Shown piece by piece: positions 13,456-32,265 of a stretch of 64,000 bases of DNA (its first letter is position 1; every line of letters starts with the position of its first letter). The notes below the pieces were generated by a model. That model was given only the letters and a program-made list of their open reading frames with translations, was not told where the DNA came from and did no database searches. Source of the DNA: an uncultured Chthoniobacterales bacterium (GTDB lineage: Bacteria > Verrucomicrobiota > Verrucomicrobiia > Chthoniobacterales > Terrimicrobiaceae); assembly GCA_964445975.1 (NCBI GenBank), contig CAYUMP010000016.1:3679-67678 (forward strand), in the 5' to 3' direction. Position numbers and translations under genes: made by a program.

Positions 13456-14493
13456 TTATTTCTTCTCGGCGTTTAAAAGCGCCTGCACTTCCTGGGTGAT
13501 TTGCTCGTACAATGCGGCGTCGTTCTTCAAAACCTCTTTTGCTGCATCACGGCCTTGCGCCACCTGGTTGCCTTTATAGCTTAGCCAGGAACCACGTTTT
13601 TCCAAAACGCCTTTTTCCAAGGCCAGATCCAGGAGGGAACCGGTGCTAGAGATTCCTTCATTATACATGATATCAAATTCCGCCTCGGTGAAGGGCGCCG
13701 CCACCTTGTTCTTCACCATCTTAATGCGGGTCCGGTTGCCGGTCACGGTGCCGTCACTGGTCTTGATCGCACCAATACGACGGATATCCACGCGCACGCT
13801 GGCATAGAACTTGAGCGCCTTGCCGCCAGGAGTCGTTTCGGGATTGCCAAACATCACACCGATCTTCTCGCGAATTTGGTTGGTAAAAATCACCACGGTG
13901 CGGGCTTTGGAAATGAAGGCCGTGAGTTTGCGCAGCGCATTGCTCATCAGGCGGGCCTGAGCGCCGACCACTGCATCGCCGATCTCGCCTTCCAGTTCGG
14001 ACTTCGTCACCAACGCGGCCACGGAATCCAGTACGATCACATCGAGTGCATTGGAGCGCACCAGGGTCTCGCAAATGCGCAGAGCCTCTTCGCCCGAACT
14101 GGGCTGCGAGACGAGCAGGTCATCGAGATTTACGCCCAATTTCCGGGCATAAGCGGGATCAAGAGCATGCTCGACATCGATGAAACCAGCCAGACCGCCC
14201 AGCCTTTGCGCCTGAGCCACGGCCGTGAGAGTCAAAGTCGTTTTGCCGGAGCTTTCCGGGCCATAAATCTCCACGATGCGGCCGCGGGGAAAGCCGCCTA
14301 CGCCCAAGGCACGATCAATGAGAATGTTCCCAGTAGGGATGGTTTCCACCTCGGAGGTGGAGTTATCACCGAGACGGCGAATAGCTTCGCTGCCATAATC
14401 TTTTTCGATCTGCTGGATGGCGAGATCCAGGTTTTTGGCACGCTGCGCAGCGGCCTTTTCATCAACGGAGGATACAACTTCTTCTTTTGCCAT
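13456..14493 (-). CDS. recA: recombinase RecA
   Basis: ORF trimmed to ATG 14493 (MAKEEVV...). Walker [16 protein letters not shown]. Classic RecA core: [28 protein letters not shown]. Confidence 0.97.
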
Positions 14494-14543
14494 GGTCACC
14501 TTGGAATTAAACGGGATTGGCCGGAATGACAAGTGGCCAAAAA

Positions 14544-14574
14544 GAAGAAAGCCCGCCAAAAGGCGGGCTTCTTC
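14544..14574 (-). terminator. rho-independent terminator after rpsD
   Basis: GCCCGCC/GGCGGGC core stem extended by GAAG/CTTC with one bulge, AAAA loop. On the minus strand it is followed by a T-rich tract. Confidence 0.6.
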
Positions 14575-15245: not shown

Positions 15246-15941
15246 TCAGACGCGACGCTGTTTAGGCGGGCGGCAGCCGTTGTGCGGGACGGGGGTTACG
15301 TCGCGGATGATGGAGATTTCCAGACCGATGGCCTGCATGGCACGGACGGCGGATTCGCGACCGGCACCGGGGCCCTTGACGCGAACTTCGACTTCCTTGA
15401 GGCCGTGACCCATGGCTTGCTTGCAAGCGTCCTGGGCGACCATCTGGGCGGCGTAGGCGGTGGATTTACGAGATCCCTTGAATCCACATTTGCCGGCGCT
15501 GGACCATCCGATCAGCGCACCACGCAGATCAGTGATGCTGATGATGGTGTTGTTGAAGCTGGCCTGAACGTGGGCGATGCCTTGGATGACGTTCTTGCTG
15601 CCTTTGGCCTTGACGACCTTGAGCGGTTCGATGGTGTCATCGAGAGAGATGCTGATAGGAGCGGCCGGAGCAGCTTCTTTCTTTTCGTCCTTCTTGGGCT
15701 TTTTGGCGGCCTTGGGCTTGGCTGGGGCGGCTGGAGCTGCAGCGCCTTCAGCAGCGGGAGCTGCAGGGGCTTCGGCGGCAGGAGCGGCCACAGCTTCAGC
15801 GGCGGGAGCAGTCGTGGCCTCGGCGGTCGGGGCAGCAACGGCTTCGGTCGCTTCGGCGGCCTTTTTCTTGGGAGCCGGCTTTTTGGCGGGCTTGGCTTCG
15901 GCCTCGGGAGTAGCCGGGGTCTGGTTGGTTTCGTCAGACAT
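15246..15941 (-). CDS. rpsK: 30S ribosomal protein S11 (uS11) with an N-terminal Ala/Pro/Glu/Lys-rich extension of about 100 aa
   Basis: Core [18 protein letters not shown]...GWSSAG...[11 protein letters not shown] matches S11. ATG 15941 lies 7 nt after the S13 stop. No ATG, GTG or TTG lies just before the conserved core. Confidence 0.9.
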
Positions 15942-19663: not shown

Positions 19664-20140
19664 TTATTTCTTCTTCTTTCCGGTCTCCGGCTTCTGGCTG
19701 AGCGTGACTGTGCCGCCCACCTTCTCGATTTTTTCCTTGGCGGAAGCGCTGATGCTGTCCACTTCGAGATGAAATTTCTTTTTCACCTCGCCGCGACCGA
19801 GCACCTTGACCCCGTCAAGGGAGCCGCGAATGACACCGGCGCCACGAAGGAGTTTTTCATTGATGGCAGCGCCATCTTCAAAGCGCTTTTCCAGATCGTC
19901 GAGATTGACGATGCCAAAAACGGTCTTGAACTTGGCGTTGGTGAAGCCGCGTTTGGGCAACTGCCGATAGAGCGGCATCTGACCACCTTCGAAGCCGTGG
20001 CGAATGCTGCCGCCGGAGCGGGCTTTCTGACCTTTGTGGCCCTTGCCGGAGGTTTTGCCATGGCCCGAGCTCTCGCCGGAGCCGAGACGCTTGCGGCGAT
20101 GTTTGGCGCCGGGATTGGGTTTTAAATCGTGGAGTCTCAT
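19664..20140 (-). CDS. rplO: 50S ribosomal protein L15 (uL15)
   Basis: N-terminus MRLHDLKPNPGAKHRRKRLGSGESSGHGKTSGKGHKGQKARSG. Confidence 0.96.
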   Translation of the reverse strand: MRLHDLKPNPGAKHRRKRLGSGESSGHGKTSGKGHKGQKARSGGSIRHGFEGGQMPLYRQLPKRGFTNAKFKTVFGIVNLDDLEKRFEDGAAINEKLLRGAGVIRGSLDGVKVLGRGEVKKKFHLEVDSISASAKEKIEKVGGTVTLSQKPETGKKKK

Positions 20141-20143
20141 AAC

Positions 20144-20692
20144 TTAGGCGGCGACGGGCACTTCGGTTTTCACACGAAGGGTTTTGCCGCGGATCTTGAA
20201 AATTTCAGCCTTCGGACGGAGCGCCATGAGCGCCTCGAGGGTGGCTTTGACAACATTGGATGGGTTGCTTGAACCGAGGGATTTCGCGAGGACGTCGCGA
20301 ATACCGGCGGCTTCGATGACAGCACGCACACCGCCACCAGCGATAACACCGGTACCGGGAGATGCAGGCTTGAGCAGCACGCGACCCCCGCCGAACTCAC
20401 CGATCACCTCGTGGGGGATGGTGTTTTCGTGGACAGCCACGGTAACCAAATGTTTTTTGGCCGCTTCCGTAGCCTTGCGAATGGCTTCGCTGACTTCGTT
20501 GGCCTTGCCGAAACCGATGCCGACCTTGCCCTTGTGATTGCCGGAGACAATCAAAGCGCTGAAGCTGAAACGGCGGCCACCTTTGACGACCTTGGCGCAG
20601 CGATTGATGAAGACAACCTTGTCGCTGAATTCCTTCGGCTCCTTGTCGTAGGAGTCGTTGGATTTCCTGTTATTTCTATTTGGAGGTGCCAT
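20144..20692 (-). CDS. rpsE: 30S ribosomal protein S5 (uS5)
   Basis: Pattern [39 protein letters not shown]. Confidence 0.96.
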
Positions 20693-20698
20693 AGGTGA

Positions 20699-21061
20699 TT
20701 AGAATTCGAGACCTGCTTCACGGGCGGCGTCGGCCAGGGCCTTCACTTTGCCATGATATTTGAAGCCGCCTCGGTCGAAGACGACTTTTTTGACATTTTT
20801 CGCGGACACACGCTCAGCGATGAGCTTGCCCACCTTGGTGGCGGTGGCGACGTTGGCCTGGTTGGCCTTGCCGGACCGCAGGTCGGTCTCGGTGGTATGC
20901 ACAGAGGCCACAGTCTTGCCTTCGGTATCGTCAATGACCTGGGCGGTAATATGACGTTCCGAGAAATGAACGGCGAGACGGGGACGCTCGGTGGTGCCGG
21001 TGACTTTTTTGCGCAACCGCACGTGGCGGAGGCGGCGTTTATTGGTGATTCTTGCAGACAT
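20699..21061 (-). CDS. rplR: 50S ribosomal protein L18 (uL18)
   Basis: Patterns [29 protein letters not shown] and the ending [26 protein letters not shown]. Confidence 0.96.
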
Positions 21062-21064
21062 GGC

Positions 21065-21604
21065 TTACTGGACGGTTTTGCCTTCCTTGCGACGAACTTG
21101 CTCGCCGGCGTAGCGGATGCCTTTGCCCTTGTAAGGCTCCGGCGGATAATAGGCACGGATGTCCGCCGCCGCCTGGCCGACAAGATGCTTGTCGATGCCT
21201 TCGATGGCGATCTTGGTGTTTTCCGTGACGGTGACTTTGATTTCGTTGGGGATGTCGAACAGGATAGGGTGCGACTTGCCGAGGCTGAGGTTCAGCTTCT
21301 GGCCCTGCACGGCTGCCTTGAAGCCGACGCCCTGAATTTCGAGGTCCTTTTTGAATCCTTCGTTAACACCTTGGACCATATTGGCCAGAAGGGAACGGGA
21401 CAGACCGTGCAGAGCACGGACCTGACGGGATTCATTTTCCCGCTCAACAGCGAGAGTGGAACCGTCGAGCTTGGCGCGAACCGCCTTGGGCAGCGTCCAG
21501 GAAAGTTTTCCCTTGGGGCCTTCAACGCTGACAGCGCCTTCGGTACCGACGTTGACCTTGACCTTGGCCGGGATTTCGATGGGTTTTTTACCGATACGTG
21601 ACAT
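21065..21604 (-). CDS. rplF: 50S ribosomal protein L6 (uL6)
   Basis: N-terminus MSRIGKKPIEIPAKVKVNV; 179 aa. Confidence 0.96.
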   Translation of the reverse strand: MSRIGKKPIEIPAKVKVNVGTEGAVSVEGPKGKLSWTLPKAVRAKLDGSTLAVERENESRQVRALHGLSRSLLANMVQGVNEGFKKDLEIQGVGFKAAVQGQKLNLSLGKSHPILFDIPNEIKVTVTENTKIAIEGIDKHLVGQAAADIRAYYPPEPYKGKGIRYAGEQVRRKEGKTVQ

Positions 21605-21616
21605 GGCTTTCCTCCG

Positions 21617-22009
21617 TTACCAGACGTAGGCGAGAAGCTCGCCGCCGACATTTTGTTTGCGTGCCTCGTGGCCGCTAAGGACACCACGAGAGGTGGAAAG
21701 GACCGCGATACCCATGCCGCCGAGCACACGTGGCACCTCGTCAGCACCGACATAGCGGCGCAGACCAGGTTTGCTGATGCGCTTGAGACCGGCAATGGCG
21801 CTGGTCTTGTTGACGAACTTGTTCTTGATCTTGAGTTGGGGGTGGCCCTTTTCAGGGGTCTCCACTTCAAAACCGGCGATGTAGCCTTCCTTCTCAAGAA
21901 TCCGGGCGATCTCGCTCTTCAGCTTGGAGTAAGGGACTAGGAATTCCACTTTGCGCGCGCGGGAAGCGTTGCGCAAGCGGGTGAGCATATCTGCGACTGG
22001 GTCTGTCAT
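21617..22009 (-). CDS. rpsH: 30S ribosomal protein S8 (uS8)
   Basis: N-terminus MTDPVADMLTRLRNASRARK; C-terminal ending GGELLAYVW. Confidence 0.96.
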   Translation of the reverse strand: MTDPVADMLTRLRNASRARKVEFLVPYSKLKSEIARILEKEGYIAGFEVETPEKGHPQLKIKNKFVNKTSAIAGLKRISKPGLRRYVGADEVPRVLGGMGIAVLSTSRGVLSGHEARKQNVGGELLAYVW

Positions 22010-22026
22010 GTATTATGTAGCAGTAG

Positions 22027-22647
22027 TTAGGCGGCCGCGGGGGCTTCCTCTTGCTGCTCCTCGGTTTTTGGCACGGCGGCGGGCTTCTTCGCCTTGTCGG
22101 AGAAGGGCATGCCAAGCTCCGACAGGAGTGATTTGGCTTCCGCGTTCGTGCGCGCGGTTGTGACGATGGTGATGTCAAAACCGATGTTGCGTTTGATTTT
22201 ATCGAGTTCGATCTCGGGGAAAATGGACTGGTCGGTCACCCCCAGGGTGTAGTTGCCGTTGCCGTCAAAAGCCTTGGCCGACACACCACGAAAGTCGCGG
22301 ATGCGAGGCAGGGACATTTTGATGAGGCGCTCCAGGAACTCATACATCGTCGCGCCGCGAAGTGTAACCTTGGCACCGATGGCCTGGCCTTCGCGCAACT
22401 TGAAGTTGGCGATGCTCTTCTTGGAGATGGTGGTAATGGGACGCTGACCGGTGATGGTGGCGATTTCCGTCCGGGCGATTTCCAAGGCTTCCTTGCTGTC
22501 CGAGCCGGCACCAATGGAGGTGTTGACCACGACCTTGGAGACTTTGGGAATCTCGTTGATATTCTTATAGCCGTGCTTCTCGCGGAGTGCAGGCACTACG
22601 CGGGTCTTGTATTCGTTCAGAAGCTCGGGATCTGGTTTATTAGCCAT
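22027..22647 (-). CDS. rplE: 50S ribosomal protein L5 (uL5)
   Basis: Patterns LLNEYKTRVVPALREKHGYKNINEIPKVSKVVVNTSIG and FDGNGNYTLGV. Acidic/Ala C-terminal tail. Confidence 0.96.
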   Translation of the reverse strand: MANKPDPELLNEYKTRVVPALREKHGYKNINEIPKVSKVVVNTSIGAGSDSKEALEIARTEIATITGQRPITTISKKSIANFKLREGQAIGAKVTLRGATMYEFLERLIKMSLPRIRDFRGVSAKAFDGNGNYTLGVTDQSIFPEIELDKIKRNIGFDITIVTTARTNAEAKSLLSELGMPFSDKAKKPAAVPKTEEQQEEAPAAA

Positions 22648-22653
22648 GGTTTA

Positions 22654-22938
22654 TTAGGCGGCTTTTTTCTTCGCCTTCTCCTTTTTGGGCGCTTTGGGTG
22701 CGACGGCTTCGACGATCTTCACATTGGAAATGTGAATCGGGCCTTCGCGTTCGATGATAGCACCGTTGGGTTGTTCCTGGGATTTACGCTGATGTTTCTT
22801 GATCAGGCGCACACCCTCGATAACGACCTGGGACTTGGCGGCGATCACCTGGAGGATCTTGCCGGAGGAACCGCGATGGTTCCCGGAAATCACCTGGACG
22901 GTGTCGCCACGTTTGACATGAAATTTGGGTTTGCTCAT
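22654..22938 (-). CDS. rplX: 50S ribosomal protein L24 (uL24)
   Basis: KOW-like pattern [24 protein letters not shown]. 4-nt overlap with rplN. Confidence 0.93.
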
Positions 22939-23300
22939 AGCACTTCGGGAGCGAGAGAAATGATCTTCATGAAGCTCTTGTCACGCAGTTCGCGGGCGAC
23001 AGGGCCGAAGATACGGGTACCGCGAGGATTGAGGTCCTTGTCGATGATGACGATCGCATTGTTGTCGAAGCGAAGATAGGAACCATCTTCACGACGCAAC
23101 GGCTGCTTCGTGCGAACGATGACGGCGCGGACGACGTCACCCTTTTTGACGGTGCCGCCGGAGGAAGCTTCCTTCACGTTGGCGGTGATGACGTCACCAA
23201 CACGAGCGGAACGCGTGGGCTTGCCGATGACACCGATCATCGTGGCCATGCGGGCGCCGGTGTTGTCGGCGACGTCGAGACGGGAGCGAATCTGAATCAT
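22935..23300 (-). CDS. rplN: 50S ribosomal protein L14 (uL14)
   Basis: N-terminus [24 protein letters not shown]; 121 aa. Confidence 0.97.
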
Positions 23301-23306
23301 AACGGC

Positions 23307-23591
23307 TTAGTGTTTGAGGACCTCCACCAGGCGCCAGCGCTTAAGGCGCGAGAGCGGACGGGTTTCCATGATGCTGACACGGTCGCCCACTTTGGCTTCG
23401 TTCTTTTCGTCATGCACGTGGAACTTTTTCACATGTTTGATGATCTTGCCGAATTTCTTGTGGGGCACACGCGTGACGGTGCTGACGACGATGGTCTTAT
23501 CCATCGCGTCGGACACGACTTCACCGACGCGGGTCTTGCGCAGGTTGCGGTCGCGGACCGGCGTTTCTGTGGTAGTAGCTGTTTCGCTCAT
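23307..23591 (-). CDS. rpsQ: 30S ribosomal protein S17 (uS17)
   Basis: Patterns [53 protein letters not shown]. Confidence 0.95.
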
Positions 23592-23596
23592 GGCAA

Positions 23597-23803
23597 TTAT
23601 TTGGCCGGTTTGGCGGCCTTGGTTTTCTGCGTGAGAACGGTCTCCACGCGGGCGGCATCGCGGCGCAGGTCGCGCAGCATATGGGGTTTCTCGAGCTGTC
23701 CACCCTGCTGCTGGATGCGCAGGTTGAAAACCTCCTGGCGAAGCTCGCGCTTGCGGTTGTTGAGCTCCTTGATGGTGAGTTCCTTGATTTCAGCGATCTT
23801 CAT
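23597..23803 (-). CDS. rpmC: 50S ribosomal protein L29 (uL29)
   Basis: N-terminus [32 protein letters not shown]. Confidence 0.93.
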
Positions 23804-23811
23804 GGCGCTAG

Positions 23812-24234
23812 TTATTTGACTGCGTGGTGACGCGAGATGAAACGCGTGCGCACGGGCAGTTTGTTGGCGGCGAGACGCAGGGACTCGCGGGCCACGGTTT
23901 CAGAAACGCCGTCGAGTTCGAAAAGCACGTTGCCGGGACGGATGACGGCGACCCAATGTTCCGGCTGGCCTTTGCCCTTACCCATGCGGGTTTCCGGCGG
24001 ACGGGCGGTGGCGGACTTGTCGGGGAAAATGCGGATCCAGAGCTTGCCTTTGCGCTTCATGGCGCGGGTCATCGCGACACGGGCGGCTTCGATCTGCACG
24101 TTGGTGATCCAGGCGCGCTCAAGGGTCTGGAGACCGAACTCGCCGAAATCAATCTTGAGCGTACGGGAAGCGTTGCCGGAACGGCTGCCGCGCTGGGTTT
24201 TGCGGTATTTAACGCGTTTGGGTAAAAGTGGCAT
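23812..24234 (-). CDS. rplP: 50S ribosomal protein L16 (uL16)
   Basis: N-terminus [22 protein letters not shown], followed by GEFGLQ. Confidence 0.96.
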
Positions 24235-24251
24235 GACGTGTCTTTCCTAAA

Positions 24252-24998
24252 TTAAGCGGCGGGCGCGGGTTCGGCGGGAGCCGGAGCGGGCTCAGGGGCG
24301 GCCTGTTGGGGGGCTCGGCGGCGTTCACGCTCCTTGAATTGCTGCTGCTGTTGCTGCTCTTCGGCCTCAGGATCGGTGGGCTTTTTGCAGATCCAGCACT
24401 TCACGCCGATCTTGCCGGCGACGGTCTCAGCTTCAGTGAAACCGTAGTCGATGGGCTGGCGCATGGTGTGCAACGGAACCTTGCCTTCGTGGTAGCGTTC
24501 GGTACGGGCGATTTCAGCACCACCCAGACGACCAGCGCAACGAATCTTGATGCCCAGAGCACCCTGCTCCATGGCGAGCTGGACGGCGCGCTTCATGGCG
24601 CGGCGGAAAGAAATACGGCGCTCGAGCTGGGAGGCCACATTCTCCGCGACGAGCTGGGCGTCGATATCGGGGGTCTTGATTTCCACGATGTCGACCTTGA
24701 CCTGCTTGCCGCCGGCGAGACGGGAAATCTCCTCAGTCATCTTCTCGATCTCGGAACCCTTGCGGCCGATGACCACACCCGGACGGGCCGTGTGAATGGT
24801 CACACGCACGCTATTCCAAGCGCGTTCGATCACGATGCGGGCCACGGCGGCCTGCTTGAGTTTCTTTTTGAGAAATGAGCGGATCTGACCGTCGGCGAAC
24901 AAATAGTCGGCGAAATCTTTGCGCGAAGCATACCAGCGCGACGACCAGTCACGACTGATCGGAAGGCGGAAGCCGATTGGATTGACTTTCTGTCCCAT
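24252..24998 (-). CDS. rpsC: 30S ribosomal protein S3 (uS3) with a Gln/Pro/Ala C-terminal tail
   Basis: N-terminus [24 protein letters not shown]. Tail [38 protein letters not shown]. Confidence 0.96.
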
Positions 24999-25001
24999 GA
25001 T

Positions 25002-25481
25002 TTACTCCTTGGATTCCGCGGCGGGAGCGGCGGATTCAGTTGCTGCGGCCGGCTGTTCAGCAGCGGCCTTTTTGGCGCCACCTTTTTTGGCGGCTGGTTT
25101 CTTGGATTTGGATTTCTTGGCCGTCTTGTCTTCGCGGCGTTTGATCTCGATTTCGTCCGTGAGAATGATGCGGATGTGGCTGGTACGCTTGAGGATCGGG
25201 CCGGCGCTGCCGCGGGCCTTGGGCTGGAAGCGCTTGAAGGTCGGGCCTTCACCCACGACGGCCTCTTTGACCACGAGGTTGGCAACATTCAGGTTGTTAT
25301 TGTTTTCCGCATTGGCCACCGCGCTGGCGAGGGTTTTGCGAACGAGAGGGGCGGCCTTTTTGGGCACAAAGCGGAGCAAGTCCAGAGCGTCCGTGGCCGG
25401 AAGTCCCTGGATTTCCCGCGTGACCTCACGCGCCTTAAAGGCGGAGATCCGTGCGTTACGGTAGATGGATTTGACCTGCAT
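25002..25481 (-). CDS. rplV: 50S ribosomal protein L22 (uL22) with a Lys/Ala-rich C-terminal tail
   Basis: Patterns ARISAFKAREVTREIQGLPATDALDLLRF and GPTFKRFQPKARGSAGPILKRTSHI. 159 aa. Confidence 0.95.
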   Translation of the reverse strand: MQVKSIYRNARISAFKAREVTREIQGLPATDALDLLRFVPKKAAPLVRKTLASAVANAENNNNLNVANLVVKEAVVGEGPTFKRFQPKARGSAGPILKRTSHIRIILTDEIEIKRREDKTAKKSKSKKPAAKKGGAKKAAAEQPAAATESAAPAAESKE

Positions 25482-25494
25482 GTTGTTGTTTTGG

Positions 25495-26298
25495 TTATTG
25501 TCTGGCGTCCACTTTCAGGCGGTCGCCGGTTTTAATTGGTGTTTTTTCCGATTCAAGACTCTGAATGATGGCCCCGCAGATGCGCTCGCGCACGTCCACG
25601 ACGCGCACTTCGCCGATGCGTTTATCCTCGCGCCAGACCTGGAAGGGCATGCCGATCAGCACACCCTGCTTCTCGCCGATGTTTGCCACCACGAGGGAAA
25701 GGTCGTCCTTGACGTCCACAACCATTCCGTCGTTGAGCGTCGCCTGCACGGATTCGGCCTGAGCGGCTTTGGGCGACCCCAGGGTTTCACTGGTTTTGCG
25801 CAATTCGGTTTCTACCGTGAGGCGGATTTGCGGGTCGATCTGCTCAGCGCTTTTGATCAGCACTTGGATCGCTTCGGCCAAGCGAAGCAGCTGGTTAACG
25901 GCGTCTTCATGCTGCTGTTTGGAGAGTCGAAGATCGCGCACTGCGGAGAGCAAGCGTTGTTCCAGCTTGCTCTGGTCTTTTTCGACGCCCGCAATGCCCA
26001 GAGCTTCCAGCTTCAGGGCCAGCTCACTTGATTGGCGTTTAAAGGCCTCGGCTTCGGCGTTGGAGATGGCAAGGCTTTCGGTCAGCGACTGGACGGTCGA
26101 ACGCAGCAGGAGGATTTTTTCCTGCAGCGCCTCGACATCATCAAGGCTGTCCTCACTGGCACTAGGCACAGTGACTTCCACCCCCTGCGCGAGGAGGATT
26201 TCATTTTCAGAGTCTGTCAAAGATCGGCTGCTCTGCGCATCCAGCCTCGCGGCGGGAAGGAGAGCGATAAGTCCCGCCGCTATCGCAGCGAGTCTCAT
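25495..26298 (-). CDS. exported coiled-coil protein of unknown function, embedded in the S10 operon
   Basis: A 267-aa ORF fills the rpsS-rplV gap, starting 3 nt after the S19 stop and ending 13 nt before the L22 start. Signal peptide MRLAAIAAGLIALLPAARLDA/QS. About 150 aa of heptad-like L/E/Q/A-rich sequence follow. The C-terminal beta-rich module reads GMVVDVKDDLSLVVANIGEKQGVLIGMPFQVWREDKRIGEVRVVDVRERICGAIIQ...IKTGDRLKV. Confidence 0.7.
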   Translation of the reverse strand: MRLAAIAAGLIALLPAARLDAQSSRSLTDSENEILLAQGVEVTVPSASEDSLDDVEALQEKILLLRSTVQSLTESLAISNAEAEAFKRQSSELALKLEALGIAGVEKDQSKLEQRLLSAVRDLRLSKQQHEDAVNQLLRLAEAIQVLIKSAEQIDPQIRLTVETELRKTSETLGSPKAAQAESVQATLNDGMVVDVKDDLSLVVANIGEKQGVLIGMPFQVWREDKRIGEVRVVDVRERICGAIIQSLESEKTPIKTGDRLKVDARQ

Positions 26299-26301
26299 GG
26301 T

Positions 26302-26580
26302 TTATTTGGTCACTTTAGCGGTGTGAGAACCGTGTTTCTTAAAGATTCGAGTCGGAGAAAATTCGCCAAGCTTGTGGCCGACCATGTTCTCCGTCACAAA
26401 AACGGGGATGAAGGTCTTGCCGTTGTGCACGTTGAACGTGTGTCCAACGAAGTCCGGAGTCACCGTGCTGCGGCGCGACCATGTCTTGATCGGCTTCTTC
26501 ACGTTGGAGTCGTTCATCTTGTCGATCTTATCGAGGAGCTTCCACTCCACGAACGGGCCTTTTTTAAGGGAGCGTGCCAT
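26302..26580 (-). CDS. rpsS: 30S ribosomal protein S19 (uS19)
   Basis: Patterns [43 protein letters not shown]. Confidence 0.97.
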
Positions 26581-26582
26581 GA

Positions 26583-27431
26583 TTATTTCTTAAGTTTTCC
26601 TTTACGGCGTTGAACGATGAAGCGATCCGACGATTTGTGCTTGCGGCGGGTCTTGAAGCCCTTGGCCAGCTGGCCCCAGGGGCTCATCGGGTGGTGGCGT
26701 CCGCCACCGCCCTTGCTCTTGCCCTGTCCACCACCCATGGGGTGATCGACTGGGTTCATGACCATACCACGAACGTGCGGACGGCGGCCGAGCCAACGGG
26801 TGCGGCCGGCTTTACCGCTGGAAACGTTCATGTGGTCGGTATTTCCGACTTGGCCGATGGTGGCGTAGCACTCTTCGTTGATCCGGCGGAGTTCGCCAGA
26901 AGCGAGTTTGATCAGAGCGTAACCGGCTTCGCGATTGGCGAGAACGGCAGTAGCGCCGGCGCTACGAATCATCTGCGCACCACGACCAGCCATGATTTCC
27001 ACATTGTGGATGGTGGTTCCTAGCGGGATCGCCTTGAGCGGGAGGGCATTGCCCACATTCGGCTCGGCTTTGGCACCGGAAACGATCTTCGCTCCGACCT
27101 CCAATCCCGCCGGAGCGAGGATGTAGGCCTTCTCGCCGTCGGTGTATTGCAAAAGGGCGAGACGGGCGGAGCGGTTCGGATCGTACTCGATCGCGATGAT
27201 CTCGGCAACGACATCATGCTTTTTGCGTTTGAAGTCGATGATGCGGTACTTGCGCTTATGACCACCACCACGATGGCGCATGGTCATGCGGCCGTTGTTA
27301 TTGCGGCCACCGCTTTTTTTCAGCGGCTCGAGCAGGGACTTTTCCGGCTTGTCCTTGGTGATCTCGGAAAAGTCCGGCAGCGCCTTGAAACGGGCGGCGG
27401 GAGTAAGAGGACGAAAGGTTTTAAGGGCCAT
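26583..27431 (-). CDS. rplB: 50S ribosomal protein L2 (uL2)
   Basis: Patterns [15 protein letters not shown] and [18 protein letters not shown]. Confidence 0.97.
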
Positions 27432-27436
27432 AGTGC

Positions 27437-27721
27437 TTAGACGATGTCGAGTTTTTCGCCTTCCTTGAGGGTGACAACGGCTTTTTTCCAGTTAGCGCGA
27501 CGACCAAAGCTGGCGGTGCGCTCACGTTTCTTTTTGCCGGCGAAATTGGCTGTGCGGACGTTGAGCACGGTCTTTTTGAAGAGCTGCTCGACGGCACGCT
27601 TGATCTCAATCTTGTTGGCGCGTGGGCTCACGCGGAACACGTATTGATTGTGCTTCTCGGAGAGAAGGGTGGCCTTCTCGGTGAGAATCACGGTCTGGAT
27701 ATGGTCGAAGGATTCGTTCAT
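27437..27721 (-). CDS. rplW: 50S ribosomal protein L23 (uL23)
   Basis: Pattern [37 protein letters not shown]. 4-nt overlap with rplD. Confidence 0.93.
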
Positions 27722-28335
27722 GACGCGAGCCTTTCAGCGATGGTGGCGAGAGCTTCCTTGGTCAGGACAATCTTGTCGAAAGCCAGGAGCTGCTCGGTGT
27801 TGACGTCGGCGGCGCGGGCCAGAAGAGCATTCTGGACGTTGCGGGCGGCGAGATAGGTCTTCTCGTCGAAGGTGTTGCCGACGATGAGAGTCTTGCGGGC
27901 GTCCTTGGCGGTTTCGCTAAGGAGGCTGATGAACTGCTTGGTCTTGGCTTCCTTGACAGCGAAGGCGTCGACGATGAGAACATCACCAGCGAGCGTGCGT
28001 TCACTAAGGGCCTTGCGGAAAGCGAGAACCTTGACCTTCTTGGGGGTGTGCTTGGCGTAGCTGCGAGGGCGAGGGCCGAAGACAACACCACCACCAACCC
28101 AGATCGGGGAGGCCTTGTCACCCGCACGGGCGCGGCCGGTACCTTTCTGGCGCCAGGGCTTCGCACCACTCAGGGCGACTTCGCCCTTCGTCTTGGTGCT
28201 GGCGGTGCCGCTACGACGATTGGCGCGCATGGCAACAACGACATCATGGACGGCCTGACGGCCTTTTTCGGTTTCGGTGATCAGTTCGATCTTGGCCTTT
28301 GCGGCCTCTTCAGCGGTAAAAACAGTGGCGCTCAT
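27718..28335 (-). CDS. rplD: 50S ribosomal protein L4 (uL4)
   Basis: Pattern [35 protein letters not shown]. Confidence 0.96.
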
Positions 28336-28338
28336 GGC

Positions 28339-28983
28339 TTATTTCTTGGCGGCTTTCTTTTTGATGGCGGGGCGAACGATGACGTTCGTGCCCTTGGCGC
28401 CGGGGACGGCTCCGCTGACGATGATGACACCATCTTCCTCGCGAACTTGGAGGATGCGGAGATTCTGCACGGTGATGCGCTCGTCACCCATGTGACCGGG
28501 CATGCCCATGTTTTTCCAAACGCGACCCGGAGTGGAGCGGTTACCGATGGCGCCGTTACGGCGGTGCATCATGGAACCGTGGGTCTGAGGCTGTCCGGCG
28601 AAATGGAAGCGCTTGACGACGCCCTGGAAGCCCTTTCCCTTCGACTGTCCGATAACGTCGACGAACTGGCCAACTTCGAAAACGCTTAAAGCGATATCCA
28701 CGCTCTCGGGAGCGGCTTCGCCCTCGGCGAGACGGAACTCACGAATGAATTTCTTCGGAGTGGAAGAGGATTTGGCGAAATGGCCGGTCTGGGCCTTGCT
28801 CACACGCTGCGGCTTCTGGTCGCCAAAGCCGACCTGCACGGCGGTGTAGCCGTCCTTTTCCTTGCTCTTAACCTGGAGAATGCGATTACCGCCCGCTTCG
28901 ATGACGGTGGCGGTGGAAACACGTCCCTTGTCATCATAGACGCGGGTCATTCCGATTTTTTTACCTAAAAGTCCAATGCTCAT
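28339..28983 (-). CDS. rplC: 50S ribosomal protein L3 (uL3)
   Basis: Patterns MSIGLLGKKIGMTRVYDDKG and GKGFQGVVKRFHFAGQPQTHGS. Confidence 0.97.
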   Translation of the reverse strand: MSIGLLGKKIGMTRVYDDKGRVSTATVIEAGGNRILQVKSKEKDGYTAVQVGFGDQKPQRVSKAQTGHFAKSSSTPKKFIREFRLAEGEAAPESVDIALSVFEVGQFVDVIGQSKGKGFQGVVKRFHFAGQPQTHGSMMHRRNGAIGNRSTPGRVWKNMGMPGHMGDERITVQNLRILQVREEDGVIIVSGAVPGAKGTNVIVRPAIKKKAAKK

Positions 28984-28995
28984 GACGTGGGCGTG

Positions 28996-29313
28996 TTAGA
29001 TTTTGATGGTGATGTCCACGCCGGCGGGGAGGTTGAGCTTGCGTAGCTCGTCCACGGTCTTGGCGGTGGGTTCGACGATATCCAGCAGACGCTTGTGCGT
29101 GCGGATTTCAAATTGGTCCATGGACTTTTTGTCCACGTGGGGCGAGCGGTTCACGGTGAACTTCTCGATGCGGGTTGGGAGCGGAATCGGTCCCGTTACC
29201 TTCGATCCCGTGCGCTTGGCCGTCTCGACGATCTCGGCGGCGGAAGCATCGAGGATGCGAAAATCAAAAGCCTTGAGGCGGATGCGGATGCGTTGGCCGG
29301 CTGGTGTTGACAT
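28996..29313 (-). CDS. rpsJ: 30S ribosomal protein S10 (uS10)
   Basis: Patterns [54 protein letters not shown]. Confidence 0.97.
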
Positions 29314-29688
29314 ATTTTTGTAAAGAACAGGTGAGGGATGGTCCCTTGGTTAAGTGTTATCGAAATCGCTTTCGGCCACAAAGGGGGGCGACCGCTCCGT
29401 GGAGCGTTTCAACAGTGCATTGAAAAGTGGTCGTCATGTCTTAGTGGCTGCCGTGTGGTCCCGCGACAGGCGTCAGGGGACAAAAAAAGCACGCTAGGTG
29501 CTCTCTCATTTCCCCGTCATGGTGCGGGAGGGAAGAAAGTAGTGAAGCGCAGCAGGGAAGCAAGAGAAAATTTGAAAATTCTTCTCTTTTACGTGGGTTT
29601 TCGACACCGCTGCAGAAATGGCGCCTATTTGAGGCGGAAAAATCCCGCATCCCGATAGCCAGACGGTCCTTTTTTCCCGGAAAAAGAT
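29314..29688 (-). promoter_or_regulatory. long untranslated leader/promoter region upstream of rpsJ
   Basis: 375 nt with no convincing ORF between the desaturase terminator and the rpsJ ATG. On the minus strand it contains a short hairpin plus T7 run, GAGCAC-CTAGC-GTGCTTTTTTT, at 29482-29504. Confidence 0.35.
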
Positions 29689-29729
29689 AATCCCCGCGCA
29701 GGTCGATTTTATCTGCCTGCGCGGGGATT
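29689..29729 (-). terminator. rho-independent terminator after the desaturase gene
   Basis: Perfect 14-bp stem, AATCCCCGCGCAGG / CCTGCGCGGGGATT, with a 13-nt loop. On the minus strand it is followed by ATCTTTTTCC. Confidence 0.8.
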
Positions 29730-29760
29730 GAGAGTTACCGAATTTTCAGAGAGAGGCCAA

Positions 29761-30903
29761 TCAGGCCGGAACGAGAACCATGCGATGCGTCTCGGCCCAA
29801 TGCCGAACGGCTTCACGCAGACTTTCTGCGGCTTCTTCGACCCGACGCTTGAGTTCACGGCGATTGACGCGAGAGATCTCGCCCCGGCGCTCGGCGGCCG
29901 CGCGATACTCGACCAAGTGCTTCTCCCACGAGACCAAGGCGGCATTCATGCGTTCCTGAGCGGAGTGAATCATGGCGTGAACGGATTCGGAAATGGGCTC
30001 ATGAAGTGCCGCCAGTTTTTCGGAGAGTTTGCGCTGCTGCTCGGCGATCTGGGCCTTGATAATGATTTCCTCCGGCACGGTGCGCAGGCGTTTGGCCAGA
30101 CCCAACTTATTCAGGAGCCAAATGGTCCATTTGGTCGGATCGAACTGCCAGGGCTTCACGCCGTTGCGATAATCGTATTGAAACTCGTGGTGGAAATTGT
30201 GGTAGCCCTCACCAAAGGTAAAGATGGCCATGAGGAAACTGTCCCGGGCCGTGCATTTGCTGGAGTAAGGGCGGTCGCCGATCCAGTGGCAAAGCGAGTT
30301 GATGCAGAACGTCATGTGGTGCACGAAGACCACCCGGGCCACGCCAGCGAGCAGGAAGGCCCCCAGCGCCGCCTGAGCACCGCCCACGAGAAAGCCGATG
30401 AGGGCGGGCACGCCGAAGCCGACAGCAAAGGCCAGCGGCACATAGTAGCGGTGCTGCCACCAGGCGAGCTTATCCTTTTGCAAATCGCGCACCCAGGTCA
30501 GAGGGGTTTCGGGACCAGTCCGGAAAAGCAGCCAGCCGATGTGAGCATGAAAGAAGCCCTTGGAAATATCGTAGGGGTCGTCGTCGTGGTCGACAAACTT
30601 GTGGTGACGGCGATGGTCAGCCGACCAACAGAGAGCCGAACCCTCAAAGGCAGCGGCGCCAAAGAGAAGGGTGAACACCTTCACCGGCCAGGCAGCCTGG
30701 AAGGTCAGATGGGAGAAGAGCCGATGGTAGCCGAGCGTAATACTCAGGCCGGTGGAGATAAAAAAGAAGAGAAACAGGGAAACCTGAAAGACATCGAGAC
30801 CATAGTGCCAGATGTATAATGGGACGGCCGTGATCGTGGTAACGAACGTCGTAATGAGGAACAGGCTGTTCTCCCAGCGAACTTTATAGGGCAGCTTTAA
30901 CAT
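29761..30903 (-). CDS. membrane fatty-acid (acyl-CoA/acyl-lipid delta-9 type) desaturase
   Basis: Three His boxes: GYHRLFSH, HRRHHKFVD, HNFHHEF. N-terminal TM pairs are present. The C-terminal extension of about 100 aa is helical. Confidence 0.88.
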   Translation of the reverse strand: MLKLPYKVRWENSLFLITTFVTTITAVPLYIWHYGLDVFQVSLFLFFFISTGLSITLGYHRLFSHLTFQAAWPVKVFTLLFGAAAFEGSALCWSADHRRHHKFVDHDDDPYDISKGFFHAHIGWLLFRTGPETPLTWVRDLQKDKLAWWQHRYYVPLAFAVGFGVPALIGFLVGGAQAALGAFLLAGVARVVFVHHMTFCINSLCHWIGDRPYSSKCTARDSFLMAIFTFGEGYHNFHHEFQYDYRNGVKPWQFDPTKWTIWLLNKLGLAKRLRTVPEEIIIKAQIAEQQRKLSEKLAALHEPISESVHAMIHSAQERMNAALVSWEKHLVEYRAAAERRGEISRVNRRELKRRVEEAAESLREAVRHWAETHRMVLVPA

Positions 30904-30949
30904 GCGGCGGACAACCTACACAGGGATCGCCCGCTGGCTAATGTTTTTT

Positions 30950-32155
30950 TTAACGTCGAGGGCGAAACGAACGGCGCGGCTGGAAGCGTTTGCCCCCTGC
31001 AACCGTCGGTTCTTTGATCCGATCGTGCCGGGGGCCGGAGGCGTAGACGAAACCCTCCAGAGACATTTGTTGGATTTTCTGTCCAATGAACCGCTCTATG
31101 GCGATCAGCTTTTTCTCCTCGTCCCGCGCGACCAGCGTAAAGGCGTCACCCGTGGCCTGGGCCCGGCCGGTGCGGCCGATACGGTGAACATAGTCCTCCG
31201 GATGCTGGGGGATATCGTAGTTGATGACGTGGCTGACTCCTGCAATGTCGATGCCGCGAGCGGCGATGTCGGTAGCCACCATGACCTCGTACTTGCCGGA
31301 TTTAAAGCCATTGAGAGCCTCAATACGCTGGTTTTGGCTGCGGTTGGCGTGCAAAACAGCGACCGAATGGTTCAGATTGCGCAGTTTTTTTGCGATCTTG
31401 TCCGCCCCGTGCTTGGTCCGGGAAAAAATGATCACGCTCTGGAAGTCGGTGGCCTTGAGCAGAGCCACGAGCAGGTCGAACTTGCGGTCCGGCTCGACCA
31501 TGTAGACCCCATGCTTGACTGTTTCGGTGACAGAACGCGCGACACCGATCTCGATGCGGACGGGGTCGCGAAGAGCGAAAGAGGCCAGGGCTGCAATCTC
31601 CGGCGGCAGGGTGGCCGAGAAAAAGAGCGTCTGCCGTTCCTTTGGGCATTTGGCGATGATGCGTTTGACGGCGGGGAGAAACCCAACATCGAGCATGCGG
31701 TCGACTTCATCAAGCACCACCACTTCGAGCCCATTGAGGCGTAGCACCCCCTGCTGCAGGTAGTCCTCCAAACGTCCAGGAGTAGCGACAATAATATCGG
31801 CTCCGCGCTTCAGGGCTTCCCGTTGCGCGCCATACCCCACCCCACCGTACAGGGAAAGGACCGAGATGTCGGTAAACCGCGCGAGATCACGAATGGATGT
31901 TTCCACCTGCATGGCCAACTCACGAGTGGGCTCCAGAATGAGGCAGCGACAGGCTCCGTGGCGATCCAGGCGCTGAAGGATCGGTAGCGCAAACGCAGCG
32001 GTTTTTCCCGTGCCCGTCTGGGCGGAAGCAATGAGATCCTTGCCTTCCAGAGCCGGCGGAATGGCGCGCAGTTGAATGGGAGTCGGGTCGCCGTAGCCCA
32101 TAGCCTGGACGCCGTGCAAAAGTGTCTTGGTCAATCCAAGGTTGGCAAATGGCAT
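30950..32155 (-). CDS. DEAD-box ATP-dependent RNA helicase (RhlE-like)
   Basis: Trimmed to ATG 32155 (MPFANLGL...). Q-motif GYGDPTPIQ, motif I AQTGTGKT, DEVD variant of the DEAD box (VLDEVDRML), SAT, HRIGRTGR. Arg-rich tail. Confidence 0.93.
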   Translation of the reverse strand: MPFANLGLTKTLLHGVQAMGYGDPTPIQLRAIPPALEGKDLIASAQTGTGKTAAFALPILQRLDRHGACRCLILEPTRELAMQVETSIRDLARFTDISVLSLYGGVGYGAQREALKRGADIIVATPGRLEDYLQQGVLRLNGLEVVVLDEVDRMLDVGFLPAVKRIIAKCPKERQTLFFSATLPPEIAALASFALRDPVRIEIGVARSVTETVKHGVYMVEPDRKFDLLVALLKATDFQSVIIFSRTKHGADKIAKKLRNLNHSVAVLHANRSQNQRIEALNGFKSGKYEVMVATDIAARGIDIAGVSHVINYDIPQHPEDYVHRIGRTGRAQATGDAFTLVARDEEKKLIAIERFIGQKIQQMSLEGFVYASGPRHDRIKEPTVAGGKRFQPRRSFRPRR

Positions 32156-32265
32156 AAAATTTTTGTTGGGCGCGCACCCTCTAGGCCTTCGCTCCATCTG
32201 TCAATCGTTTAGGGAACCCTCCATGATTTGAAAAGAAGTGCGTTTCCCCAAGCGAGAGTTGCAAG

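Follow-up and report, generated by a model that had tools for sequence, protein, structure and literature searches.

We examined a 64,000-nucleotide (nt) stretch of DNA, here called the window, from an uncultured Chthoniobacterales bacterium of the family Terrimicrobiaceae (assembly GCA_964445975.1, contig CAYUMP010000016.1). In this window an additional gene, which we call X, lies between rpsS and rplV, the genes for ribosomal proteins S19 and L22. The S10 operon is among the most conserved gene orders, and the order rpsS-rplV is regarded as essentially invariant among bacteria. Here a minus-strand cluster of the S10-spc-alpha type reads S10-L3-L4-L23-L2-S19-X-L22-S3-L16-L29-S17-L14-L24-L5-S8-L6-L18-S5-L15-SecY-Adk-Map-...-S13-S11-S4. 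A preliminary description of the window had reported an 804-nt same-strand open reading frame (ORF) between S19 and L22, separated from them by 3 nt and 13 nt. The coordinates and junction sequences agree with this report (Table 1) and add the strand, which it had left out: X lies on the minus strand. Across the S19/X junction the sequence reads ...AAA TAA ACC ATG AGA.... No repeats or mobile-element genes lie next to X. Plus-strand antisense ORFs of 185-193 amino acids (aa) overlap X and S19 (window 25465-26326), and similar ones occur throughout the cluster; such ORFs are typical of GC-rich coding DNA, and we did not count them as genes.

Table 1. Gene X, its neighbours and junctions, the parts of its predicted product, and related features (window coordinates unless loci are named)
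Feature	Position or loci	Strand	Basis
Gene X, predicted exported coiled-coil/beta-barrel protein of 267 aa	25495..26298, including stop	-	ORF list, ATG start
rpsS (ribosomal protein S19), directly upstream of X	26302..26580	-	92 aa; Pfam Ribosomal_S19, E = 6.3e-38
rplV (ribosomal protein L22), directly downstream of X	25002..25481	-	159 aa; Pfam Ribosomal_L22, E = 2.4e-37
Junction of S19 stop and X start, TAA-ACC-ATG, 3-nt gap	26296..26304	-	sequence
A/C-rich 13-nt spacer from X stop to rplV start, TAA-CCAAAACAACAAC-ATG	25482..25494	-	sequence
Predicted signal peptide, signal peptidase I type, residues 1-21 (MRLAAIAAGLIALLPAARLDA / QSS)	26236..26298	-	R2, 15-residue uncharged core, A21 at -1
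Acidic mature N-terminal linker, residues 22-51	26146..26235	-	low model confidence, isoelectric point (pI) 4.05
Coiled-coil/bundle region, residues 52-173	25780..26145	-	AlphaFold2 helices 52-99, 109-150, 156-173
Six-stranded beta-barrel, FlgT C-domain-like, residues 189-264	25507..25734	-	domain-only AlphaFold2 model
C-terminal tails of ribosomal proteins	25002-25150, 24252-24400, 22027-22100	-	ORFs against Pfam domains
Loci with the S10 operon broken after L22	L013, L018, L019, L020, L043, L044, L046, L047, L058, L059		

X keeps this position among relatives. We compared 138 loci, comprising 80 GTDB species-level genomes, 11 loci of divergent representatives obtained from twelve exact-protein look-ups, and 47 metagenome contigs; many of these loci are contigs of metagenome-assembled genomes (MAGs). 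In a uniform tally, S19 lay immediately upstream of X in all 131 assessable loci and L22 lay immediately downstream in 132 of 133, which shows that the insertion is kept. Ribosomal protein genes neighbour X at 138 of 138 loci, and no flagellar neighbourhood was seen at any of them. Among these syntenic loci, X can be as little as about 29% identical to its counterpart in the window. The rpsS-rplV slot is held despite this divergence, and this argues for selection for the linkage itself.

Spacing on the upstream side is tight in the order to which the window belongs. Between S19 and X the median gap is 3 nt (interquartile range 3-6) in 66-74 Chthoniobacterales species, as in the window, whereas the median is 29 nt in other lineages; the 3-nt spacing first described for the window is therefore typical of the Chthoniobacterales set only. 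The distance from the X stop to the L22 start has a median of 20-28 nt among relatives. Six loci (L018, L019, L020, L023, L028 and L066) have long X-L22 spacers of 95-117 nt, compared with a median of about 28 nt, and some of these spacers hold GC-rich palindromic stretches.

X also stays in place where the operon itself is broken. In about ten Chthoniobacterales loci (Table 1) the S10 operon is interrupted after L22, with S3 no longer adjacent, and X is still found with S19 and L22. Because three of these loci (L043, L044 and L047) share the same new gene downstream of L22, at least their rearrangement is real. At another, L018, a lipoprotein-like ORF and purD lie downstream of L22.

The S19 protein of the window is identical to that of a 'Terrimicrobiaceae bacterium' MAG. 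All of the GTDB loci with X belong to Chthoniobacterales (Terrimicrobiaceae, Chthoniobacter and 'Spartobacteria'). At other X loci, S19 is identical to, or falls in the same 90% cluster as, that of Prosthecobacter sp., P. fluviatilis, Brevifollis gellanilyticus, Roseimicrobium sp. ORNL1, R. gellanilyticum, marine 'Verrucomicrobiales bacterium' MAGs and Chthoniobacteraceae. One further lineage, L084, possibly belongs to Methylacidiphilales, on weak evidence. The X slot is thus fixed across at least two orders of Verrucomicrobiota, Chthoniobacterales and Verrucomicrobiales. Taxon labels of homologues, taken from cluster names and the homologue search, were limited to 'Verrucomicrobiales' or 'Verrucomicrobia bacterium' and the weak pointer to Methylacidiphilales, and the family is most likely specific to Verrucomicrobiota. 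Two loci with clearly verrucomicrobial S10 operons, L081 (GCA_047615205.1) and L087, come from MAGs labelled 'Pseudoalteromonas tetraodonis' and 'Candidatus Saccharimonadia bacterium' at NCBI; errors in binning or taxonomy probably explain these labels.

X is a real protein-coding gene. When 5.8 billion proteins were searched by word index, the scored candidates included 1,168 homologues, the best 120 of which are 60-100% identical and 261-270 aa long. In an exhaustive profile search over 1.84 billion cluster representatives, the family comprised 1,016 clusters at 50% identity with E<=1e-3, 433 with E<=1e-10 and 146 with E<=1e-30. The median length of the family is 265 aa, and length and architecture are unchanged even in distant members of 25-33% identity. 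Across 13 Terrimicrobiaceae genomes, the ratio of nonsynonymous to synonymous substitution rates (dN/dS) was 0.129 for X, compared with 0.016 for S19, 0.068 for L22 and 0.061 for L2. X is therefore clearly under purifying selection, though it evolves faster than these three ribosomal proteins. In one long-read MAG (L063:4001-4802) the reading frame of X looks disrupted, and one metagenome gene call (P0186) joins the C-terminus of X to L22. Both are probably sequencing or gene-calling errors, not pseudogenes.

Full-length searches placed X in no Pfam, NCBIfam or PADLOC family, and no solved PDB structure matches the full-length sequence beyond non-significant coiled-coil noise. The names that homologues carry from automatic annotation at the Joint Genome Institute (YlxP, SlyX, Lpp, XseB, 'chromosome segregation ATPase', 'transcriptional regulator') contradict one another, and we disregarded them. 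The 'signature protein' CT421.2 of the Planctomycetes-Verrucomicrobia-Chlamydiae group was rejected as an identity for X, as it is a different small protein. The preliminary description had known of no precedent at this position; consistent with that, the literature searched describes no gene in the rpsS-rplV slot of Verrucomicrobia. A systematic study of Gammaproteobacteria and Bacilli (PMC8046335) places most of the insertions that it analysed in detail between operons. X is apparently an undescribed exception to the S10 gene order, and it apparently founds an unannotated protein family.

What does X encode? We applied a rule-based test for signal peptidase I (SPase I) substrates, which looks for a positive n-region, an h-region of 7-15 residues, small residues at -3 and -1, and no lipobox. 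The N-terminus of X has the Sec/SPase I pattern, running M-R, then LAAIAAGLIALL, then PAARLDA / Q, so the cleavable signal peptide ending LDA/QS that had been proposed from the window is also predicted by rule. Alignment conservation of Ala21, at -1, is at least 90%. A strongly hydrophobic N-terminal 11-mer is present in 120 of 143 diverse members (median start at residue 11), Lys or Arg precedes the h-region in 90% of members, and no later transmembrane-like segment follows. A lipobox was found in none of 141 closer relatives and in 3-7 of 154 distant ones; a lipoprotein or Lpp-like identity was rejected for want of a lipobox. Because the hydrophobic N-terminus is conserved while its sequence turns over, it looks like a targeting signal. 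We infer that X is exported through Sec and cleaved after Ala21.

After the predicted cleavage site comes the acidic linker. Its motif RSLTD[SF]E is conserved in Chthoniobacterales, and R25, S26, L27, T28 and D29 are at least 90% conserved. Residues 1-51 have a predicted local distance difference test score (pLDDT) below 50 in the full-length AlphaFold2 model.

The helical region that follows has a significant hydrophobic periodicity of 3.5 residues (z = 2.0 and 3.8). The heptad-rich coiled coil of the preliminary description is therefore borne out in its periodicity, but its length is about 120 aa and not the 150 aa given there. The helices also carry polar motifs found across the family (SLAxANxEAExF(K/R)R, EALG and LEQRLLxAVxDLR), which suggests a specific interaction surface and not a featureless spacer. 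A Pfam search of this region gave only generic, non-significant coiled-coil matches. Homology to vimentin, liprin, Lpp or BST2 was rejected, since the profile matches to the PDB were to generic coiled coils with E >= 0.06.

The C-terminal part of X folds as a barrel. Foldseek matches of the full-length model came from the barrel alone, with template modelling (TM) scores that were misleadingly low, and we therefore used a model of the domain by itself. This model has a pLDDT of 92.1 and a predicted TM score (pTM) of 0.79, which bears out the beta-rich C-terminal module reported earlier. The domain carries the motif G-x3-GV-x2-GMPF ... VVDVR-x3-SGA ... GDR, and the protein ends after it in ...VDARQ. 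The top Foldseek match was FlgT in the Vibrio LPHT ring 8z5n (8z5n_0; TM 0.69, E = 5.4e-4), and the FlgT crystal structure 3w1e matched with TM 0.68. The next class consisted of the N-terminal crown barrels of F1/V1-ATPase subunits (TM about 0.60-0.65; F1-alpha about 0.64). These matches do not support the SH3- or OB-like identity that had been proposed for the module; they give the type of the FlgT C-domain and the F1-ATPase crown.

Profile searches point the same way below threshold. Pfam FlgT_C (PF16538) matched 40 of 59 diverse C-terminal domains at E<=1, with a best E of 7.8e-6, and the window barrel scored 15.9 bits (E = 0.019) against a gathering score of 27 bits. One distant homologue has a precomputed PF16538 match. 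The MreC barrel core (PF04085) matched 8 of the 59 domains below threshold, with a best E of 7e-4, as well as one full-length distant member. A profile of the barrel domain weakly matched TsaP 3jc8 (E = 0.004). The domains of TsaP are FlgT-C-like and form a periplasmic ring round the PilQ secretin (bioRxiv 10.1101/2020.05.29.123786).

The product does not resemble a ribosomal protein, as the preliminary description had held. X has a pI of 4.89 and a net charge of -10 (family median pI 5.6), compared with pI values of 9.4-11.6 for the 17 ribosomal proteins of the cluster. No Pfam family of ribosomal proteins matches it, and none of its 50 best Foldseek matches is a ribosomal protein or translation factor, though the PDB is rich in ribosome structures.

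We compared X with the systems it most resembles. The last 76 residues of X share the six-stranded barrel or beta-roll of the FlgT C-domain, and X has a predicted export signal, as FlgT and TsaP have. However, X lacks the N and M domains of FlgT (no FlgT_N or LPP20 match), and its N-terminal two thirds are coiled coil. TsaP has an N-terminal LysM domain and two FlgT-like domains, whereas X has no LysM match and one barrel only. The FlgT and TsaP loci are flagellar or pilus loci, whereas X is in the S10 operon. MreC has the same order of N-terminal hydrophobic segment, coiled coil and periplasmic beta-barrel, but it has two barrels, a membrane anchor and an mreBCD context, in contrast to the single barrel, likely cleavable signal peptide and S10 setting of X. 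The crown barrel of F1/V1-ATPase alpha and beta subunits, the second-best structural class, packs laterally into a ring; it belongs to a large ATPase subunit in the cytoplasm, and X shows neither sequence similarity to it nor a nucleotide-binding domain.

Exported proteins dominated by an amphipathic heptad helix, as X is predicted to be, include Lpp, CpoB (in its N-terminal coiled coil) and Skp. Lpp has a lipobox Cys, a trimeric coiled coil and a C-terminal Lys tether, whereas X has no lipobox and ends in a barrel; the Lpp profile match to the X family was non-significant (E = 0.16). The tetratricopeptide repeat domain of CpoB and the OmpH domain of Skp are absent from X, and the likeness is that of a generic coiled coil. 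X is thus not a member of FlgT, TsaP, MreC or Lpp; what it has in common with them is limited to the fold of the barrel and the general plan of a periplasmic scaffold.

As a gene, X is best compared with secY, adk, map and infA, the passengers of the spc and alpha operons. Like X, they are same-strand, tightly packed and conserved inside a ribosomal protein unit, and secY, adk and map lie further down the same cluster. The product of secY also serves protein export. These passengers are near-universal and sit in the spc operon, whereas X is lineage-specific, sits inside the S10 operon and encodes a predicted exported substrate, where their products are cytoplasmic or belong to the translocon. 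X has the features of a passenger gene: it is on the same strand, no promoter-like or terminator-like site separates it from its neighbours, and its position is conserved across lineages.

A consensus scan of the cluster (20000-30600) found no promoter-like or terminator-like sites on the minus strand, and no Rfam element was found at E<=0.1. Together with the short gaps on either side, this agrees with the earlier claim that no terminator or promoter-sized gap surrounds X. The X start has no strong Shine-Dalgarno sequence; its anti-Shine-Dalgarno duplex of -2.3 kcal/mol is typical of the cluster, where most genes lie -17 to +33 nt apart and pair with the anti-Shine-Dalgarno sequence weakly or not at all. 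Because the spacing and initiation context of X resemble those of its neighbours, co-transcription and termination-reinitiation coupling are the simplest reading. From its setting, X would be co-transcribed with the S10 operon, and coupling at the S19/X junction is likely.

Taken together, we propose that X encodes a co-transcribed, exported, oligomeric periplasmic scaffold or strut protein of Verrucomicrobia, and we give this reading as a whole a probability of roughly 0.68. The S10 operon mRNA would include X. Ribosomes that end translation of S19 would most likely reinitiate on X, and probably do the same from X into L22. The N-terminal Sec/SPase I signal would then take X across the inner membrane, with cleavage after Ala21. 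Mature X would be an acidic protein of about 27 kDa in which a flexible N-terminal stretch leads into about 120 residues of helical coiled coil, as a stalk or bundle, and then into a barrel of the FlgT-C type. By analogy with the relatives of its barrel (the FlgT H ring, TsaP, MreC and the F1 crown), which pack side by side into rings or arrays, X would most likely self-associate, its barrel packing on its own copies or on an envelope complex as a periplasmic scaffold or strut. Its place in the operon would tie the supply of X mRNA to ribosome synthesis and hence to growth rate, and X may thus have a growth-rate-coupled envelope function.

Several observations weigh against this proposal. The synteny has one exception among 133 loci: on a MAG contig (L010:3959-5929), a gene resembling DNA polymerase III delta' (holB-like) follows X, reflecting either a true rearrangement or a chimeric assembly. 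Every Pfam match of the barrel is below the gathering threshold, and cytoplasmic proteins (the F1 crown and riboflavin synthase) also have this barrel fold. The full-length AlphaFold2 model is poor (pLDDT 65, pTM 0.30) and gives no reliable helical arrangement or oligomeric state. The uncharged N-terminal run has a median of 19 residues and reaches 30, which in part of the family is long enough for an uncleaved anchor. Finally, with the cluster's own ribosomal protein genes as reference, the codon adaptation index (CAI) of X is 0.519, compared with 0.637-0.803 for all 17 of those genes, and is close to the median of 0.541 for 30 other long ORFs in the window. This ordinary codon usage does not support expression at the level of ribosomal proteins and argues against very high abundance of X. 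The preliminary description had X made in step with ribosomes; this is likely for the transcript but does not extend to equal protein output.

A bolder form of the proposal makes X an essential, abundant periplasmic ring or strut specific to Verrucomicrobia, its synthesis hard-wired to ribosome production. We consider this form quite doubtful. If true, it would be a direct genetic coupling of growth capacity to envelope building, with no counterpart in model bacteria.

Of the alternatives, the one that survives best is that X is an uncleaved, inner-membrane-anchored scaffold for morphogenesis, similar to MreC, whose coiled coil dimerises and whose periplasmic barrel organises peptidoglycan synthases; in that case, linking expression to growth rate would serve the growth of the wall. 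The domain order of MreC, the PF04085 matches and an uncharged run that could span the membrane in some members are all in keeping with this idea. However, in the window protein the hydrophobic core is just 15 residues, followed by a helix-breaking Pro and the conserved A-x-A-like LDA / Q. X also has one barrel where MreC has two, no MreC chain is among its top 50 Foldseek matches, where FlgT comes first, the MreC matches are far under the Pfam threshold, and X lies outside any mreBCD locus. We judge an MreC-like anchor unlikely.

Alternatively, X could stay in the cytoplasm and work with the ribosome or in translation, for example as an assembly factor or a membrane tether, its hydrophobic N-terminus being no export signal. 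Strict linkage to ribosomal protein genes over very large divergence would fit this, as would a fold class shared with cytoplasmic F1 crown domains and the usual roles of genes in ribosomal protein operons, which lie in translation or secretion (as for secY, map and adk here). However, the acidity of X sets it apart from every ribosomal protein of the cluster, and a signal-peptide-like N-terminus persists in most diverse members despite sequence turnover. The nearest relatives of its barrel are periplasmic (FlgT_C, TsaP and MreC), and the top 50 structural matches contain no translation-factor barrel. These data make a cytoplasmic role improbable.

The X ORF could also act mainly in cis, its translation serving as a spacer or buffer to adjust coupling and stoichiometry among the distal genes (L22 to S17), and the protein would then matter little. 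Tight junctions on both sides, ordinary codon usage and a protein that evolves faster than its neighbours are what such a spacer might show, but the dN/dS value and motifs that stay invariant at about 29% identity show that the protein sequence itself is under selection. Conservation extends to the domain architecture, the signal peptide and the well-folded barrel, and an ORF of 800 nt would be implausibly costly as a spacer. We regard this explanation as highly improbable.

GC-rich DNA yields long spurious ORFs, many antisense ORFs are listed nearby and no curated family matches X, but a chance ORF, a recent selfish or mobile insertion without host function, or the freely varying non-coding spacer against which the preliminary description had set its own account is already refuted by the conservation data (more than 1,000 clusters, dN/dS of 0.13, constant length and a position fixed in at least two orders), as well as being at odds with a confidently folded domain and the lack of adjacent repeats or mobile-element genes.

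Whatever its precise role, X provides a simple synteny marker for these verrucomicrobial lineages and an unannotated family whose domain architecture is tractable. As a periplasmic scaffold or strut, X would be a candidate for a major component of the periplasm in a phylum with poorly known envelope biology, and its locus offers a natural test of an operon that couples envelope construction to ribosome synthesis. X apparently has cultured carriers, since S19 at X loci is identical or at least 90% identical to that of Prosthecobacter, Brevifollis and Roseimicrobium, and experiments are therefore feasible.

The window cluster shows further departures from the usual arrangement. Two genes are absent from their usual places in the spc operon, where there is no room for them: S14, as L5 and S8 are 17 nt apart (22009-22027), and L30, as S5 and L15 are 3 nt apart (20140-20144). 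After S4, recA (13456-14559, minus strand) occupies the place where rpoA-rplQ would be expected. Upstream of S10 (29761-32197, minus strand) lie genes for a fatty-acid desaturase and a DEAD-box helicase instead of tuf/fus.

Several ribosomal proteins of the cluster are extended. The S11 ORF (15246-15941, minus strand) encodes 231 aa, of which the Pfam S11 domain covers only residues 121-230. Its first 100 residues or so form a low-complexity extension rich in Ala, Pro, Glu and Lys that begins 7 nt after the S13 stop. L22 (159 aa), S3 (248 aa), L5 (206 aa) and L24 have C-terminal tails rich in K, A, E, P and Q that run past their Pfam domains (Table 1). Together, the S11 extension and these tails suggest a lineage habit of low-complexity extensions on ribosomal proteins.

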